DNA of 64,000 nucleotides from the NCBI GenBank assembly GCA_031292375.1, contig JARLHF010000049.1, forward strand, positions 4,377 to 68,376, read 5' to 3'. Source of the stretch: Chlamydiales bacterium (lineage in GTDB: Bacteria > Chlamydiota > Chlamydiia > Chlamydiales > VFKH01). The notes under the pieces are model-generated. The model did no database searches. It was not told the DNA's origin and was given only the letters and a program-made list of their open reading frames with translations. The translations under genes were made by a program, and so were the position numbers. This document shows positions 29,019 through 35,475 of the stretch, piece after piece (the first letter of the stretch is position 1; every line of letters starts with the position of its first letter).

Positions 29019-30854
29019 ATGCAAAGACCCCGAAAATTGTTATCATCCCTAGCCTTGTTTACTGTAACAGCAGTAGCTGGGCTTATTATCTCTGGATGCT
29101 GCCGCAATAGCTGTTATGACAGCTGTTACCCAGCACCTTGTGCACCAACATGTGCTCCTGTGTGCGCACCTAATTGTGCACCACAGAACGGCTGGGCCCC
29201 ATCAGGGTATCAGAACAATAGCTATCGCTTAGATTACAATTCTAAGTTACAATTTGGCCAACAACAGTATTATAATAATAGCAACCAAGGTGGCTATTAT
29301 CAAAATAACAACGCACCAGCGTATGCTCCAAGCACACCTGTAGGAAACTGTGGAGCAGGAAGCTGTTCTGTACCTACTCCAGTATGTGCACCAGCACCTG
29401 TTTGCGCCCCTGTTTGTGCACCAGCACCTGTATGCGCACCTGTTTGTGCACCAGCACCTGTTTGTGCACCTGTTTGCGCACCAACACCAGATTGTCCTAA
29501 TACAGTAACAATCAACACAGACCTTATTCGCATTACAAAAAAATTCCCTCCAAAAGTTGACCTCAACCAAGAATTTATGGTTGAAATGACAGCAACTGCT
29601 TTGGATAATGCGTCTAATGTTGTGATCACAGAAACAGTTCCAGCAAGCTTGTCATTTGTTCGCAGTGAACCTGGAGCAACTGCAGGTGCTGATCACCTAG
29701 TATGGAACATTGATGCAATTAAAAAAGGCCAAACACAAACAATTAAAATTTTCTTCAAGCCAACAGCTTGCGGTGAAGTTTGTGGATGCACAACTGTTAC
29801 AGCAGTGCCTTTCATTTGCGCACCTGTTTTTGTTGGATGCCCATGCATCACATGTAAAAAAACAGGACCTACAAGAGTTAATTGCAATGAGCCAATTGAT
29901 TTCATGATCACTGTTACAAACACAGGTACAGCTGTTGCTAAGAATGTTCTTGTAACAGAAAACCTTCCACCAGAAGTAGAGCATGCAAGCGGACAGAGAG
30001 TTCTCAAGTTCCCACTTGGCGATCTTTGCCCAGGCGAAACAAAGCAAATTTGTGTACGTGTAAAAGCTTTAACACGCTGCATTCGCGTATGCAACCAAAT
30101 CACAACAACATCTTCTAACTGCGAAGGCAGTGGTTGTGAGTGCTGCTTAGACATTTGTCAAAACATCGTTTCTATCAGAAAAACTGGTCCTTGCGAACAG
30201 TATATCTGCAAAAATGCTGATTACCAAATCGTCATTAAAAACGAGGGTGACAACGTTCTACATAACGTAGTTGTAACAGACTATGCACCTGCTGGAACAT
30301 CTATTGTGATGGCTCCTGGTGCTAATGTTTCTTGCAACAACGCAACATGGTGTGTACCTTGCTTAGGTCCAAATGAAGAAAAAGTATTCAACCTAAAACT
30401 TACTTCTACTGTATGTGGAACTTATTGCAACAAAGCATCTGTTCGTGCATCTGATGGATGCGGTGCAGACACACAAATTTGCACTATATGGAAAGGTTGC
30501 GGCGGTATCTGCACAAATGTATGTGGCTGCGAAGGATCTATTTGCCTTGGCAACTTTGACACATACAAAATTACTGTAAGAAACCAAAGCGTTGTAGCTG
30601 ACAAAAACGTTGCAATCGTTGCAACATTCAGCCCAGAACTTCAACCAGTTAGCGCAAATGGCTCTACTGCTTGCACAGTTTCTGGACAAACAGTTACATT
30701 CAAACCAATTCCTTCTCTTGGACCAAAACAAGTAGCTGAATATACAGTTAAAGTTAAAGGTGTAGCAGCTGGAGATGGACGTGTAAAAGTTTCTACAATG
30801 TCAGACTTCTTGACAAGACCACTTGTTGATGAAGAAAGCACACAAGTGTACTAG
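29019..30854 (+). CDS. omcB: Large cysteine-rich outer membrane complex protein OmcB (DUF11 repeats)
   Basis: Cys-rich. DUF11-like modules (ITVTNTGTAVAKNVLVTENLP; IVIKNEGDNVLHNVVVTDYAP). C-terminal ...EESTQVY typical of OmcB. Confidence 0.9.
   Translation: MQRPRKLLSSLALFTVTAVAGLIISGCCRNSCYDSCYPAPCAPTCAPVCAPNCAPQNGWAPSGYQNNSYRLDYNSKLQFGQQQYYNNSNQGGYYQNNNAPAYAPSTPVGNCGAGSCSVPTPVCAPAPVCAPVCAPAPVCAPVCAPAPVCAPVCAPTPDCPNTVTINTDLIRITKKFPPKVDLNQEFMVEMTATALDNASNVVITETVPASLSFVRSEPGATAGADHLVWNIDAIKKGQTQTIKIFFKPTACGEVCGCTTVTAVPFICAPVFVGCPCITCKKTGPTRVNCNEPIDFMITVTNTGTAVAKNVLVTENLPPEVEHASGQRVLKFPLGDLCPGETKQICVRVKALTRCIRVCNQITTTSSNCEGSGCECCLDICQNIVSIRKTGPCEQYICKNADYQIVIKNEGDNVLHNVVVTDYAPAGTSIVMAPGANVSCNNATWCVPCLGPNEEKVFNLKLTSTVCGTYCNKASVRASDGCGADTQICTIWKGCGGICTNVCGCEGSICLGNFDTYKITVRNQSVVADKNVAIVATFSPELQPVSANGSTACTVSGQTVTFKPIPSLGPKQVAEYTVKVKGVAAGDGRVKVSTMSDFLTRPLVDEESTQVY
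29382..29483 (+). repeat. In-frame 30-bp tandem repeat (about 3.4 units) encoding VCAPAPVCAP
   Basis: gt(a/t)tgtgcaccagcacctgt(a/t)tg(c/t)gc(a/c)cct repeated within omcB. Confidence 0.9.
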
Positions 30855-30926: not shown

Positions 30927-30986
30927 GCTTTTTTAAAGCTTATGTTATATCATAGCTCCTGTTATCAAAAACTTCGAAATATATTT

Positions 30987-31793
30987 ATGAAAAAATTACC
31001 TTTATGGAAAGAAGCTTCTTCCTTTGGTGAAGCAGAAAAAAACTGGGATGAAGGAGCAAAAGCTGCAAGAAAGATCTGTCCCTTAAAAATTCCTAAATCT
31101 CTACCCTCCATGGTAGGCATCACTCCTGAGACTCAAAAAGGTCTCAAGTGGAAAAGCCTAAAATGGATGATAAAAGAAGATAAAAACAGAGCCATCCTTA
31201 AAAATATTTTACAGCACCCTTTCAAATACCCTTTATCTTTCTTAAAATCAGTTTTCAAAAAAAGCTCTTATATTAGAGATGATGATTTTTTTCTTTATGG
31301 GATCAAAAATGTAGATGAATTCAAAATTCTTTTAAAAAAACCCAATGTCCTTTTAGTTGCAGGCTTTTCTTATTGTCATAAGCCTCACGAATGCCCCTCT
31401 GGTCGTTTTACAACTAGTTGTATTCATGATAGCGAAAATCCCGTCTGCAGACAATGCTACATTGGTAAGTGCGTCAATGCCCTTCCAGAAAACAATGTAA
31501 AACCCCTCTTTATTACCACGATCCACTACATTGGTGAAGAAATTTTTAAACTTGTGCACGCAAATCCAAACAAACAGGTCATCTTTATCATCACAGCTTG
31601 TGAAATGACCCTTCAGATGTTTGGAGATTTTGGAAATATGGTAGGGATCAAAGGAATTGGTGTAAGACTCGACGGGCGCATCTGCAATACCATGAAAGCT
31701 TTTGAATTATCAGAGCAAGGCATCAAGCCAGGACTTACTGTTGTTCTTGACCATACACAAAAGCGTATTCTCGACTTACTCCGCTTGCTCTAA
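30987..31793 (+). CDS. Cys-rich hypothetical protein, DUF116-like
   Basis: SYCHKPHEC...SC...CRQCYIGKC, IITACEMTL, GIGVRLDGRIC. Start 30942 or 30987. Confidence 0.5.
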   Translation: MKKLPLWKEASSFGEAEKNWDEGAKAARKICPLKIPKSLPSMVGITPETQKGLKWKSLKWMIKEDKNRAILKNILQHPFKYPLSFLKSVFKKSSYIRDDDFFLYGIKNVDEFKILLKKPNVLLVAGFSYCHKPHECPSGRFTTSCIHDSENPVCRQCYIGKCVNALPENNVKPLFITTIHYIGEEIFKLVHANPNKQVIFIITACEMTLQMFGDFGNMVGIKGIGVRLDGRICNTMKAFELSEQGIKPGLTVVLDHTQKRILDLLRLL

Positions 31794-32975
31794 ATCCTGA
31801 ATTCTTTGAAGGATAAACTCCTCATATTTTGCAATAGCTACTTCTGGATCGCTAAGGCGCTCCTCTTTTGAAACCATCAACATCTCCTGAATCAGACATT
31901 GTAAAGGACTCTTTTTCATATGCTCTGGAGTAATCGTAACAATCTCTCCTTGTTGCAAATTTATTATTGCTCGCATCTGCTTTCTAATAGCCTTTTTCTC
32001 ATCTCCAGATTCATTCCGCAAAATCCAATGGGGATGTTTTGCATAATACATCTCAAATAGTGCACAACCAAGAGCCCACATATCCTCAGAAACGCTTCTT
32101 AAAAAAGGACTTGATCCTCTTTCAAAGCTCTTAGCATATTCTGGAGAAAAGTATATAGGTGTTCCACTAGCTACTTGTAGACGCTCATGATTGCTACTTC
32201 TGCAAGATAGGCCAAAATCACCAAGATATCCAGAGCATTCTTCTTTGCCTGTATTTGCATCACGGGTAATGTCAACAAAAATATTATCTCGCTTAACATC
32301 TAAATGAAGGATCTCTCTTGCTTTACATCCTTTGAGCCCATAAAGCACGTCTAGCGTAATTCTTAACTGATCTTTTTCCAAATAGTCATATTCTAATCCC
32401 TCTTCGTTTTTTTCATCTAAAGCGCCAAGCCTATAATAAGGTTGCTCTAAAAAAGCTTTTTCGCATCCTTTTTTGCCTCCTATAAAGTTTAAGCTTAAAG
32501 CACTTGCAACCCCCCTTACGCCTTCTAGCTCCTTTAAAACCCCATACTCTCTTTCAATATCCGCTCTCAATTTGAGCGTATCTGCTTTAGAAATACCTAC
32601 AACAATCATTTCCTCTAAATTACAACTTACGGCGGTGCGAACCTTGTATTTAAAAGTCCCTGGGCAAAACGTATAATCTCCAAGCCTCTTCTTATTAAAA
32701 TGTACCCGAACATCGCCATCTCTCAATACTTCAATAGCCCTTGGAAGCTTATTTGCAGAGGCCCCTTTATAGACAAATCCATCAAGACTCTCATATGCCT
32801 CAGCTAGCAGTGCCTCATAGTTTGTTTTGATGTAATGATAAATATCTGCAACATCAAATAGGGAAAGACTTGGGTAGCATATCTTTGCAGCCCTCTGAAA
32901 ACCTTTTGCTTTTTCAAGACTTGGAGAGTATTCCAAATCTAATGTTACAAAACTATGAGATGTGACAGTACTCAC
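31776..32975 (-). CDS. Eukaryotic-like Ser/Thr protein kinase (non-RD)
   Basis: GTFK Gly-loop, HLDVKRDN, DFG, GTPIYFSPE, DMWALG. Confidence 0.88.
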   Translation of the reverse strand: MSTVTSHSFVTLDLEYSPSLEKAKGFQRAAKICYPSLSLFDVADIYHYIKTNYEALLAEAYESLDGFVYKGASANKLPRAIEVLRDGDVRVHFNKKRLGDYTFCPGTFKYKVRTAVSCNLEEMIVVGISKADTLKLRADIEREYGVLKELEGVRGVASALSLNFIGGKKGCEKAFLEQPYYRLGALDEKNEEGLEYDYLEKDQLRITLDVLYGLKGCKAREILHLDVKRDNIFVDITRDANTGKEECSGYLGDFGLSCRSSNHERLQVASGTPIYFSPEYAKSFERGSSPFLRSVSEDMWALGCALFEMYYAKHPHWILRNESGDEKKAIRKQMRAIINLQQGEIVTITPEHMKKSPLQCLIQEMLMVSKEERLSDPEVAIAKYEEFILQRIQDLEQAE

Positions 32976-34500
32976 GATGGCTCCTATTTTTTTCTAAAAA
33001 TTCAATTCTTTCAAGGAAAAGCCTTTCATATTTTGCAATAATGACTCCTGGATCTGTAAGACGCTTATCCTTAAACACTGCTAATAAATCACAAATCATA
33101 TACACCAAAGGACATTCTTCCACTGGAACATCTGGGGGTATAAGTTGTAACATATTCTTCACCATTGTTCTTACCTGCTTCCATGAAGTCACTCGTGTTT
33201 GTGGAAACCAAGGAGGACTATAATTAAAACACAGTTTATATAAAGTGCAACCCAAGGCCCACATATCATCAGAAAATTCTCTTAAAGGCATCTCTAAATT
33301 CCTTCTACGGCATCTGGAAACTTCCTCAATGTATTCAGGAGAGAAAAACGCAGGTGTTCCAACCAACACTTCTTTTAAACGATCTATTTCATCTTTTCTA
33401 CAATAAGAACCAAAATCACTTAAGTGAGCTGAATATTCTCTTTCACCTGTAATTGCATCTTCATTAGAAATACCAATAAGCACATTACCCGGCTTAATAT
33501 CTCTGTGGATAATTCCATTTGCTTTACACTTTTTAAGCCCATAAAGCAAATCAAGCGTTATCTTCAATCGATCTACTTCTGAATATGCTTCAGGATTATT
33601 TAAAGAACCCATTTCATAACAAGGTTGCTTTAGAAAGGCCTTTTCTTGATTTTCTTTACCACAAATAAAATTCAAGCTCAATGCACTTGCAATACCCCTT
33701 GTTCCTTCTAATTCTTTTAAGATCACATATTCTCTTCCAATGCTCTCTCTTAAATCGGGATTATCCGCTTTAGCTACAGCTATACTAACTACTTTTCCTA
33801 AATCACAGCTTATGGCTGTACGAACTGTTTTATATGTTCCCTCACCAAGTAAACGGTCACCTAGCCTCAGCTTATTGAAGTGCACAAGCACATCACCTTC
33901 CTTTGAAACTTCAACAGCCCTTGGAAGGGACTCAGAAGCCCTCTGATAACCAGGTTTTCCATCTTCTTTGCTGGCCGCCACATGCAATTCCTCGAAATTT
34001 GTCTCAATGCAAGCAGAAATTGCTTTAATTTCATCAGGGAAAAAGGGATAACTATTAGGAGCTGCTTTTACAATGCTCTCAAAAGTTTTTGCTTTTTTTG
34101 AGCCAACAGAGCGCATCTGAACATCCTGCTCTTTAAATTGCATTAAATTGCCTTCTATACAAGCCTTATAAGCGTCGCTTTGCTCAATATTAAAGCATTT
34201 TGCTATATCTTTAATTTTTGCAAGAACAATATGTAATTCACCACTCTCCTCAGTAACCACACGCAAGGGTACTTCACGCATCTGAGGATTATAGGAAACT
34301 CCTTCATACAGCTCTAAAGTATCAGATGCTTCTTCTGAAGTAATAAATCTTACAGAAATCTTGTTTTCTACGGATTGGAAACAAGATAGAGTCAAATGCG
34401 AAGCGATAGGGCTTTCTTCATTTGGATCTTTAGTAAATGAACCCCTTACGCAAGCAAGAGAAGAGAGTGGTTCTAAAAAATTACATACAACAGCGCTCAT
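32953..34500 (-). CDS. Eukaryotic-like Ser/Thr protein kinase (RD type), paralog of downstream kinase
   Basis: GEGTYKTV, HRDIKPGN, DFG, GTPAFFSPE, DMWALG; extra N-terminal region of about 150 aa. Confidence 0.9.
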   Translation of the reverse strand: MSAVVCNFLEPLSSLACVRGSFTKDPNEESPIASHLTLSCFQSVENKISVRFITSEEASDTLELYEGVSYNPQMREVPLRVVTEESGELHIVLAKIKDIAKCFNIEQSDAYKACIEGNLMQFKEQDVQMRSVGSKKAKTFESIVKAAPNSYPFFPDEIKAISACIETNFEELHVAASKEDGKPGYQRASESLPRAVEVSKEGDVLVHFNKLRLGDRLLGEGTYKTVRTAISCDLGKVVSIAVAKADNPDLRESIGREYVILKELEGTRGIASALSLNFICGKENQEKAFLKQPCYEMGSLNNPEAYSEVDRLKITLDLLYGLKKCKANGIIHRDIKPGNVLIGISNEDAITGEREYSAHLSDFGSYCRKDEIDRLKEVLVGTPAFFSPEYIEEVSRCRRRNLEMPLREFSDDMWALGCTLYKLCFNYSPPWFPQTRVTSWKQVRTMVKNMLQLIPPDVPVEECPLVYMICDLLAVFKDKRLTDPGVIIAKYERLFLERIEFLEKNRSHREYCHIS

Positions 34501-34515
34501 AATCTATTTACTCTT

Positions 34516-35475
34516 CTATTTATAAAGGTGTTTTTTTCTAAATGGCTTATGCGTATCTTCTGCATGATAGGGTCTAAGTCTTTCCGAATGAACGCAACTT
34601 TCCTGGCAACACCCCTTGTGAGTATGTAAGCAGGTAAGACAACATAAGAAAAGCTCATTACAGTCCATATTAGCACAGTTATAATAGGTATCAGAAAGCG
34701 ATTTACAATGACGACAAGAGCCAATAATCTCAGATCCATCCTCATTGCCAACACTAATTGCAAGACGATCATCAAAAACAAATAATTTCCCAACCCAGTG
34801 CTTATGCCCAACTTCTAAGCCATATTTAATGACGCCCCCTTGCAACTGATAAACGGACTCAAAGCCTTCTTCCATCATAAGAGCAGAGTAAAGCTCGCAG
34901 CGAATGCCACCCGTGCAATACATCAAAACTTTTGTTTTTTTGGGATCTCTTGTTTTTTTTAATTCTTTTGCAAATTGTGGAAATTCACGAAATGTTTCAA
35001 GAGGAGGTAGTAGTGCGCCCTCAAAATAACCAATCCTTGTTTCATAGTTGTTGCGCGTATCAATAAGGACGAGATCTTCATCTCGATTATCTAGCATACT
35101 TTCCCACTCCTTTGCAGAAAGGGGCTGACCTCTTTTTGAAAGATCAACATCTTTATCCATTGCAACGAGCTGTTTTCGCACCTTTACTGTCATCTTAGGA
35201 AATGCATTCTCATGATGTTTATGAACTTTAAACTCCATGTCTTTAAAGCGAGCATCATCATGCATCCAATGCATATATGCATAGGCATCTTCTTTGAGCG
35301 CGCTCATTTGACCATTAATCCCTTGGTGGGAAATGTAGATTCTTCCGCTGACATCTCTCTCTTCAAAAAATGTCTTATGCTTTCTAACTTCATCTTCTGG
35401 ATTTTCGATGGGCGTAAAATAATAATAGGCAAGAACCCAGTACTCTTTAGATAAGGATGTCATATTTTCAGTCAT
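34516..35475 (-). CDS. trhO: tRNA uridine(34) hydroxylase (rhodanese YceA/TrhO)
   Basis: GRIYISHQGING, IDTRNNYE, YCTGGIRCE, LQGGVIKY, GKLFVFDDR. Confidence 0.92.
   Translation of the reverse strand: MTENMTSLSKEYWVLAYYYFTPIENPEDEVRKHKTFFEERDVSGRIYISHQGINGQMSALKEDAYAYMHWMHDDARFKDMEFKVHKHHENAFPKMTVKVRKQLVAMDKDVDLSKRGQPLSAKEWESMLDNRDEDLVLIDTRNNYETRIGYFEGALLPPLETFREFPQFAKELKKTRDPKKTKVLMYCTGGIRCELYSALMMEEGFESVYQLQGGVIKYGLEVGHKHWVGKLFVFDDRLAISVGNEDGSEIIGSCRHCKSLSDTYYNCANMDCNELFLCCLTCLHTHKGCCQESCVHSERLRPYHAEDTHKPFRKKHLYK

Follow-up and report, generated by a model that had tools for sequence, protein, structure and literature searches.

The WNK kinases are defined by the placement of their catalytic lysine, which lies in the Gly-rich loop (Lys233 in WNK1) and not in subdomain II; this loop lysine is routinely called unique to WNK and is the basis of chloride sensing and of WNK-selective inhibitors, the chloride pocket being built on a DLG motif (PMC5346417). 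We describe here two adjacent genes, K1 and K2, on the reverse strand of a 64,000-nucleotide (nt) stretch of contig JARLHF010000049.1 from a Chlamydiales bacterium (the window, i.e. the whole stretch of DNA analysed), which encode kinase domains of eukaryotic type that are intact and conserved but have their lysine relocated. The pair is a recent tandem duplicate within a family of Chlamydiota kinases in which the catalytic lysine has probably moved from strand beta3 to the Gly-rich loop (GxGxxK) independently of WNK. A WNK-type lysine placement had already been proposed in a preliminary description of this DNA, and it is supported by gapless alignments to known kinases, by conservation throughout the family, by the anticorrelation of the two lysine positions and by the strand register in AlphaFold2 (AF2) models.

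WNK kinases have a Cys in the beta3 slot which elsewhere holds the lysine of the VAIK motif, and their Gly-rich loop reads GRGSFKTV. Loop and slot are 17 residues apart both in WNK1 (Lys233-Cys250) and in PKA (Gly55-Lys72). K1 and K2 resemble WNK in carrying a lysine at the third-Gly position of the loop (Lys224 in K1, Lys109 in K2) and a residue other than lysine in the beta3 slot, while the other catalytic residues are kept; the spacing from Lys224 to Ala241 in K1 is likewise 17 residues. The differences are a slot residue which is Ala or Gly instead of Cys, a DFG motif instead of the DLG of the chloride pocket, the absence of autoinhibitory, CCT-like or coiled-coil regions (Pfam finds no further domains), the bacterial host, and a family-specific helix and hairpin extension in front of the kinase domain.

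Eukaryotic-type kinase domains are also present in bacterial proteins such as LegK1 of Legionella, the chlamydial PknD/Pkn1/Pkn5 and PknB. LegK1 is the top NCBIfam match of K1, but the scores stay far below the cut-offs (40.2 versus 550 for LegK1, 30.8 versus 450 for PknB), PknD matches neither K1 nor K2 at E 0.001 or better, and NCBIfam holds no model for the family. The Hanks-type kinase linked to the type III secretion system (T3SS) in the same genome (C15:110056) differs from the pair in having a canonical Gly-rich loop and beta3 with the slot lysine kept (TIK). In the literature covered, which excludes most subscription journals, we came across no chlamydial or other bacterial kinase described with a WNK-like lysine.

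Position of the lysine in K1 and K2

K1 (P0001, 515 amino acids; 32953-34500) is composed of an N-terminal module, a pre-kinase extension and a kinase domain of the RD (Arg-Asp) type. K2 (P0002, 399 amino acids; 31776-32975) is its tandem paralog, of non-RD type (HLD) and without the N-terminal module. Both open reading frames (ORFs), and the features given for them below, are on the reverse strand. The Pfam Pkinase model (PF00069, cut-off 31.7) matches K1 with 80.7 bits (E 1.5e-22, residues 216-482) and K2 with 79.2 bits (E 4.4e-22). Among the features that identify this superfamily, both proteins have the catalytic-loop Asp and Asn, the Asp of DFG, the alphaC Glu (Glu257 in K1, Glu143 in K2) and an SPE as APE-type motif; the VAIK lysine of beta3 is missing, and its slot is occupied by Ala241 in K1 and Gly127 in K2.

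In K1 the Gly-rich loop GEGTYKTV (33823-33846) contains Lys224 (33829-33831), the proposed catalytic lysine. The beta3 sequence GKVVSIAVAK, of which SIAVAK spans 33769-33786, places Ala241 (33778-33780) in the canonical lysine slot and has Lys244 (33769-33771) three residues on. Glu257 (33730-33732), within the modelled helix 248-263, would be the salt-bridge partner expected for the catalytic lysine, and the catalytic loop HRDIKPGN (33484-33507) and the DFG motif (33409-33417) follow. K2 has a degenerate Gly-rich loop, CPGTFKYKV (32640-32666), in which Lys109 (32649-32651) is the proposed catalytic lysine and is followed by a one-residue insertion. Its beta3, MIVVGISK, ends in GISK (32586-32597), with Gly127 in the slot and Lys130 three residues on; the catalytic loop is the non-RD HLDVKRDN (32283-32306) and DFG lies at 32211-32219. 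Translation and alignment bear out what the preliminary description had read here: the GEGTYKTV loop and a K1 beta3 (GKVVSIA) without lysine at the VAIK position, GTFK and MIVVGIS at the equivalent places of K2, HxD, K-x-x-N and DFG in both kinases, one HRD and one HLD, and a shared LPRA(V/I)EV...VHFNK.RLGD stretch. Its tandem duplication with a 23-nt overlap also stands, K1 and K2 being 44% identical across 386 residues (E 2e-93) and sisters in a maximum-likelihood tree of kinase domains, with a Shimodaira-Hasegawa-like approximate likelihood ratio test (SH-aLRT) value of 100.

From the Gly-rich loop to the end of beta3, HMMER aligns the K1 N-lobe to MNK1, CDK5, PHO85 and CDKL2 without a gap. 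These alignments bring the VAIK lysine opposite Ala241, and the third glycine of GxGxxG opposite Lys224; the K2 equivalents are Gly127 and Lys109. The identical register is obtained with a whole-domain profile of 124 family sequences against PhK-gamma2, CDPK1 and CaMKII, and with a profile of the N-lobe only against RAD53 and CDK5. An anchor independent of the alignment program is provided by the Ala of AxK (column 239, two before the slot), which 102 of 104 canonical kinases of a background set described below have in common with 85 of the 115 family members (these being selected for presence of the loop lysine); it fixes the slot two residues on.

The AF2 model of K1 residues 130-515 has a predicted local distance difference test (pLDDT) score of 92.6 and a predicted template modelling score of 0.91. 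The fold is that of a bilobal kinase, with a Foldseek probability of 1.00 to many kinases and template modelling scores, by target, of 0.65-0.74. DSSP assigns beta2 to residues 224-231, beta3 to 236-244 and alphaC to 248-263, so that in the nine residues of the modelled beta3 Ala241 is the sixth and Lys244 the last. In the K2 model (pLDDT 90.5) beta3 spans 122-130, with Gly127 in the slot and Lys130 again last. Structural modelling had been suggested as a check on the proposed placement, and in both models the lysine of AVAK or GISK lies outside the canonical beta3 slot.

These data bear on the alternative that the later beta3 lysine (Lys244 of AVAK, Lys130 of GISK) is the truly catalytic one, through a register shift or a bulge, and that the loop lysine is incidental, which we hold to be very improbable. 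This later lysine is kept in both K1 and K2, the column three after the slot (column 244) has Lys or Arg in 44 of the 115 family members, and the one loop-lysine kinase from a Planctomycetota sample (L121, see below) also reads AIAVLK. However, a lysine is present there in just 29 of the 115, and out of nine loop-lysine paralogs in the source genome it is found in K1, K2, C62 and C5 and is missing from the other five. Of the 104 canonical kinases, which have their own catalytic lysine, 26 carry Lys or Arg three after the slot, as in the well-known VAIKxLK/R pattern, and a basic residue at this position is therefore ordinary decoration. Moreover, the AxK Ala sets the slot three residues before the later lysine, and in both models this lysine comes three past the slot, so that from strand alternation its side chain would be expected on the opposite face. 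Two further lysines were considered and discarded as the catalytic residue: Lys236, which is Glu in K2, and Lys210 of the HFNK motif, which is conserved in the closest subfamily only.

Conservation, relatives and distribution of the family

A word-indexed search with a single protein retrieved just the two window proteins and weak generic kinases; such a search is near-blind to the family, and an exhaustive representative search was needed. It yielded 337 proteins at E 1e-10 or better, and more than 100 clusters of such kinases. When the 124-sequence profile was run in a word-indexed homolog search, mostly generic kinases came back, and these results were reused as an unselected background control.

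At least 90% conservation in the 124-sequence alignment is seen for Lys224, Glu257, His332, Asp334, Asn339, Asp362, the PE of the APE motif, Asp412, Gly417 and Arg480, and the consensus of the loop is GxGsfKkV. Among the 115 family members Asp334 and Asn339 are present in all, Asp362 in 114, the alphaC Glu in 112 and Lys336 in 103. The slot (column 241) is Ala, Ser, Gly or Cys in 84 (Ala 49, Ser 20, Gly 8, Cys 7). As a side observation, the column of Phe363 makes the motif DLG, not DFG, in 27 of the 115.

The two lysine positions exclude each other almost completely. Of the 130 hits aligned from the representative search, 115 have the loop lysine only, eight the slot lysine only, two both and five neither. 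The unselected set comprises 119 kinases drawn from all domains of life, and here ten have the loop lysine only, 104 the slot lysine only, none both and five neither. These counts are descriptive and would overstate significance if read as a test, because the sequences are related, but the pattern itself is unambiguous. The ten loop-lysine proteins of the unselected set are further family members. Otherwise the loop position in these 119 rows is mostly Gly (49), Ala (36) or Ser (19), and lysine at the third-Gly position occurs in none of the 104 canonical kinases. Judged from the aligned sequences, the motif pattern is not a product of chance.

Besides the relatedness of the sequences, several points weigh against a lysine shift in the form proposed. 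The slot column is Leu, Val or Ile in about a quarter of the family members, which could reflect local misalignment or a requirement for a small residue that is less than strict. The structural argument for Lys224 draws on the strand register of the models, not on atomic distances. For K2 activity is less certain than for K1, since its Gly-rich loop block has a mean pLDDT of only 73; the first Gly of this loop is also replaced (CPG), in addition to the insertion after Lys109.

The source genome (G000), a 1.96-Mb draft of an uncultured member of the Chlamydiota in 70 contigs and 96% complete, contains nine loop-lysine paralogs including K1 and K2, in all of which the loop lysine is invariant, with Ala, Ser, Gly or Thr in the slot. 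The seven others lie outside the window, at C45:12172-18176 (a tandem triple), C37:2347-3741, C62:16417-17877, C5:17848-19995 and C11:6815-9013. Three members of the wider family in this genome look like pseudokinases by their sequences: C45_16464, with HFE in place of DFG and a degenerate loop; C62, with HRDIHFGN and without the GT...PE region of the activation segment; and C53:366-1907, a more distant, degenerate paralog with GFE and HRDLCLEN, which has lost the Gly-rich loop and kept the slot lysine (MIK).

It could be asked whether K1 and K2 are themselves pseudokinases or nucleotide-binding scaffolds, with the loop lysine used for something else, for instance to bind a partner or a different ligand. 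Loss of the VAIK lysine is the classic signature of a pseudokinase, the three degenerate relatives just described show that such members occur in the family, and K2 combines a degenerate Gly-rich loop with HLD. We nevertheless regard this as unlikely. Pseudokinases usually lose the catalytic Asp, Asn, DFG Asp or alphaC Glu as well, and here these are kept in 112 to 115 of 115 members; the loop lysine is near-invariant in the family and absent from that position in the canonical kinases; and WNK1 sets the precedent that a loop-lysine arrangement is catalytically competent (PMC5346417). The conservation profile, as far as sequence can tell, is that of an active kinase with its lysine in an unusual place and not that of a decaying pseudokinase.

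A maximum-likelihood tree of 111 kinase domains was built with both trait columns removed and without WNK sequences. Fifty-seven loop-lysine kinases fall within one clade of 64 (SH-aLRT 99), from which the Hanks kinases of bacteria and the CAMK and NAK kinases of eukaryotes stand apart. Two proteins within the clade, P0046 and P0076, have the canonical lysine arrangement, and a relative from another chlamydial genome (L021) pairs a GEGACS loop with LAVK. These three, without the loop lysine and with a canonical AxK lysine, are apparent natural reversions and should be useful for comparison. K1 and K2 represent one recent duplication within this much larger chlamydial family, and the trait is therefore old and not peculiar to the locus. 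A close relative of 681 amino acids, P0021, has two Pkinase stretches by Pfam and is a possible tandem-kinase fusion in one protein.

The best matches to solved structures belong to the CAMK group. The whole-domain profile search of the PDB is led by PhK-gamma2, CDPK1 and CaMKII (E 1e-58 to 1e-55), the N-lobe-only search by RAD53, CDK5, Snf1 and TAO, and Foldseek by PhK-gamma2, CaMKII, TNIK, MST2, ASK1 and BIKE (E 4e-15). PhK-gamma, CaMKII and apicomplexan CDPK1 are thus the best relatives both in sequence and in fold; the N-lobe aligns to them without gaps from the Gly-rich loop to beta3 and the kinase domain can be aligned over most of its length. The differences are an identity of about 20-24%, the use of the canonical VAIK lysine and GxGxxG by CAMK kinases, and the calmodulin or EF-hand regulatory parts, which are not common to K1 and K2.

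These matches also bear on the idea that the family derives from a WNK kinase of a eukaryotic host, gained by horizontal transfer. Chlamydiae are known to carry eukaryotic-type genes, and the WNK loop given above is similar to GEGTYKTV and to the family consensus. Against such a transfer, no WNK chain is present in the top 60 matches of the full-domain PDB profile search, in the top 60 of the N-lobe-only search, though this profile carries the invariant loop lysine, or in the top 50 of Foldseek, and a 58-residue N-lobe query for a WNK chain found MNK1 alone (E 0.5). The best matches are CAMK, CDPK, RAD53, CDK and STE20-type kinases at the low identity given above, and K1 and K2 have DFG, not DLG, and no WNK-type C-terminal domains. 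A WNK ancestor is for us hardly credible. The preliminary description had left the choice between convergence and acquisition: convergence gains from the CAMK-like nature of the closest solved relatives together with the absence of WNK from the top 50-60 matches, and acquisition from WNK is disfavoured.

For the taxonomic distribution the N-lobe profile was used as probe, since in the source genome it matches exactly the nine loop-lysine paralogs and no canonical kinase. Of the 400 Chlamydiota genomes sampled, 79 (59 of 212 genera) contain the family, often with multiple copies and tandem arrays. The window's own family group has matches in one of its four genomes, and a family group with genomes of about 1.1 Mb (f4) has none in 29. 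Outside the phylum weak matches were obtained in one of 251 Verrucomicrobiota and six of 251 Planctomycetota genomes, and on inspection all but one of the matches in these 502 genomes were canonical kinases. The exception (L121, in genome G698 of the Planctomycetota sample) has a GEGGVK loop and an AIAVLK beta3; it is a stray member of the family or else marks a further independent origin. A scan of genome contigs with the subfamily pattern [IL]HRD[IV]K[PL][EDG]N returned just generic Hanks kinases from many phyla, hence no taxonomic information, and the protein atlas gave generic kinase clusters only. The kinase family is large, centred on the Chlamydiota and apparently undescribed.

Proposed mechanism and function

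In the proposed mechanism the catalytic lysine would have shifted from the VAIK position of beta3 to the third-Gly position of the Gly-rich loop, leaving a small residue in the vacated slot. By analogy with WNK1, Lys224 of K1 and Lys109 of K2, at the beginning of beta2, would reach down into the room left by Ala241 and Gly127, and would touch the alpha and beta phosphates of ATP and the alphaC Glu257 or Glu143. Asp334, Lys336, Asn339 and the DFG Asp362 would then perform ordinary phosphotransfer, and K1 and K2 would be catalytically active through Lys224 and Lys109. K1 is an RD kinase. K2 is non-RD and has a degenerate Gly-rich loop; its activity may be constitutive or weakened, or it may serve K1 as a regulatory partner. 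The WNK-style placement would have been reached separately from the WNK kinases, as the CAMK-like closest relatives and the absence of WNK among the best matches argue for convergence and not acquisition.

If this is true, the family would be a second, independent and much more diverse one with the WNK rearrangement. It would offer a natural experiment on why and how a catalytic lysine can move, with the apparent reversions included, and would advise caution when proteins are annotated as pseudokinases from absence of the VAIK lysine. Environmental chlamydiae, moreover, would be seen to carry a large number of uncharacterised kinases that probably target the host.

We infer that K1 and K2 are most likely effectors delivered into a eukaryotic host cell. 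This is based on the eukaryotic-type domain, on a family which is patchy, expanded and tandemly duplicating, on the lack of the pair from the corresponding slot of a relative (see below), on the absence by eye of a signal peptide or membrane segment, on a disordered K2 N-terminus (residues 1-14 in the AF2 model, the start of K2 being rich in Ser and Thr) and on the presence of T3SS components in the genome, namely a secretin (C15:115283) and SctJ (C13:20909). A point against the effector part is that Pfam searches of the 96%-complete draft did not find SctV (FHIPEP) and SctU (Bac_export_2). The genes for these two adjoin in Chlamydia, and one unassembled contig could therefore account for both. 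A further idea, that a bacterial family with an independent WNK solution has gained sensitivity to the anions or ions of the host cytosol, so that injected kinases would be switched by compartment or ionic state, is decidedly doubtful.

Accessory regions and genomic context

The pre-kinase extension (K1 residues 130-215, 33856-34113) is present in K1 and K2 and has no Pfam match. AF2 models it as two long helices and a three-stranded sheet packed on the N-lobe, with pLDDT above 90. It includes the beta-hairpin LPRAVEV...VHFNKLRLGD (33856-33927), a family-specific N-lobe extension with modelled strands at residues 196-198 and 204-208. The hairpin is conserved in K1, K2 and their closest relatives, and the close subfamily is invariant for a Gly, the Asn-Lys of HFNK and the Asp of GD. 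In the Foldseek alignments about 70-100 of the 386 modelled K1 residues are left unaligned by solved kinases, which would fit a pre-kinase extension lying outside solved kinase folds.

Further upstream, K1 residues from about 60 to 125 (34120-34320) form a conserved N-terminal module which is common to K1 and most of the paralogs and absent from K2. The motif shared by the paralogs is WVPVTIKK...ILVNIRSAAKRLGV...FEAAKSG. The N-terminal 215 residues of K1 and the N-terminal regions of the paralogs have no Pfam or NCBIfam match, and the module could be a targeting or chaperone-binding region.

The two ORFs share 23 nt, the last 23 nt of K1 being overlapped by K2. K2 starts with GTG, and an AGGAG ribosome-binding site (32981-32985, reverse strand) can be read five nt 5' of this codon, within the 3' end of K1. 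Promoter and terminator scans gave nothing above the shuffled expectation. Upstream of K1, and co-directional with it, is a trhO-like gene of the UPF0176/rhodanese type by Pfam (34516-35475, reverse strand), ending 15 nt before the K1 start. On the other side orf283 (30942-31793), a conserved Cys-rich ORF of 283 amino acids without Pfam match, is convergent with K2 and shares 18 nt with its 3' end.

The trhO-like gene is one border of a variable slot, and is kept in all four family-level relatives, which do not have the kinases. In a relative (G003, L117:6222-7664) the slot between the orf283 homolog, 62% identical over 250 residues, and trhO is occupied by a sodium:solute-symporter-like gene of 480 amino acids and not by kinases; the kinases were therefore a lineage-specific gain, and duplication came afterwards. 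The slot between orf283 and trhO is a variable insertion site adjoining omcB. The latter encodes, just upstream at 29019-30854, an OmcB-type Cys-rich outer membrane protein with Chlam_OMP6 and four DUF11 repeats by Pfam. Its N-terminal region is unusual, being rich in Gln, Asn and Tyr and carrying repeated CAP(V/A/T)CAP units.

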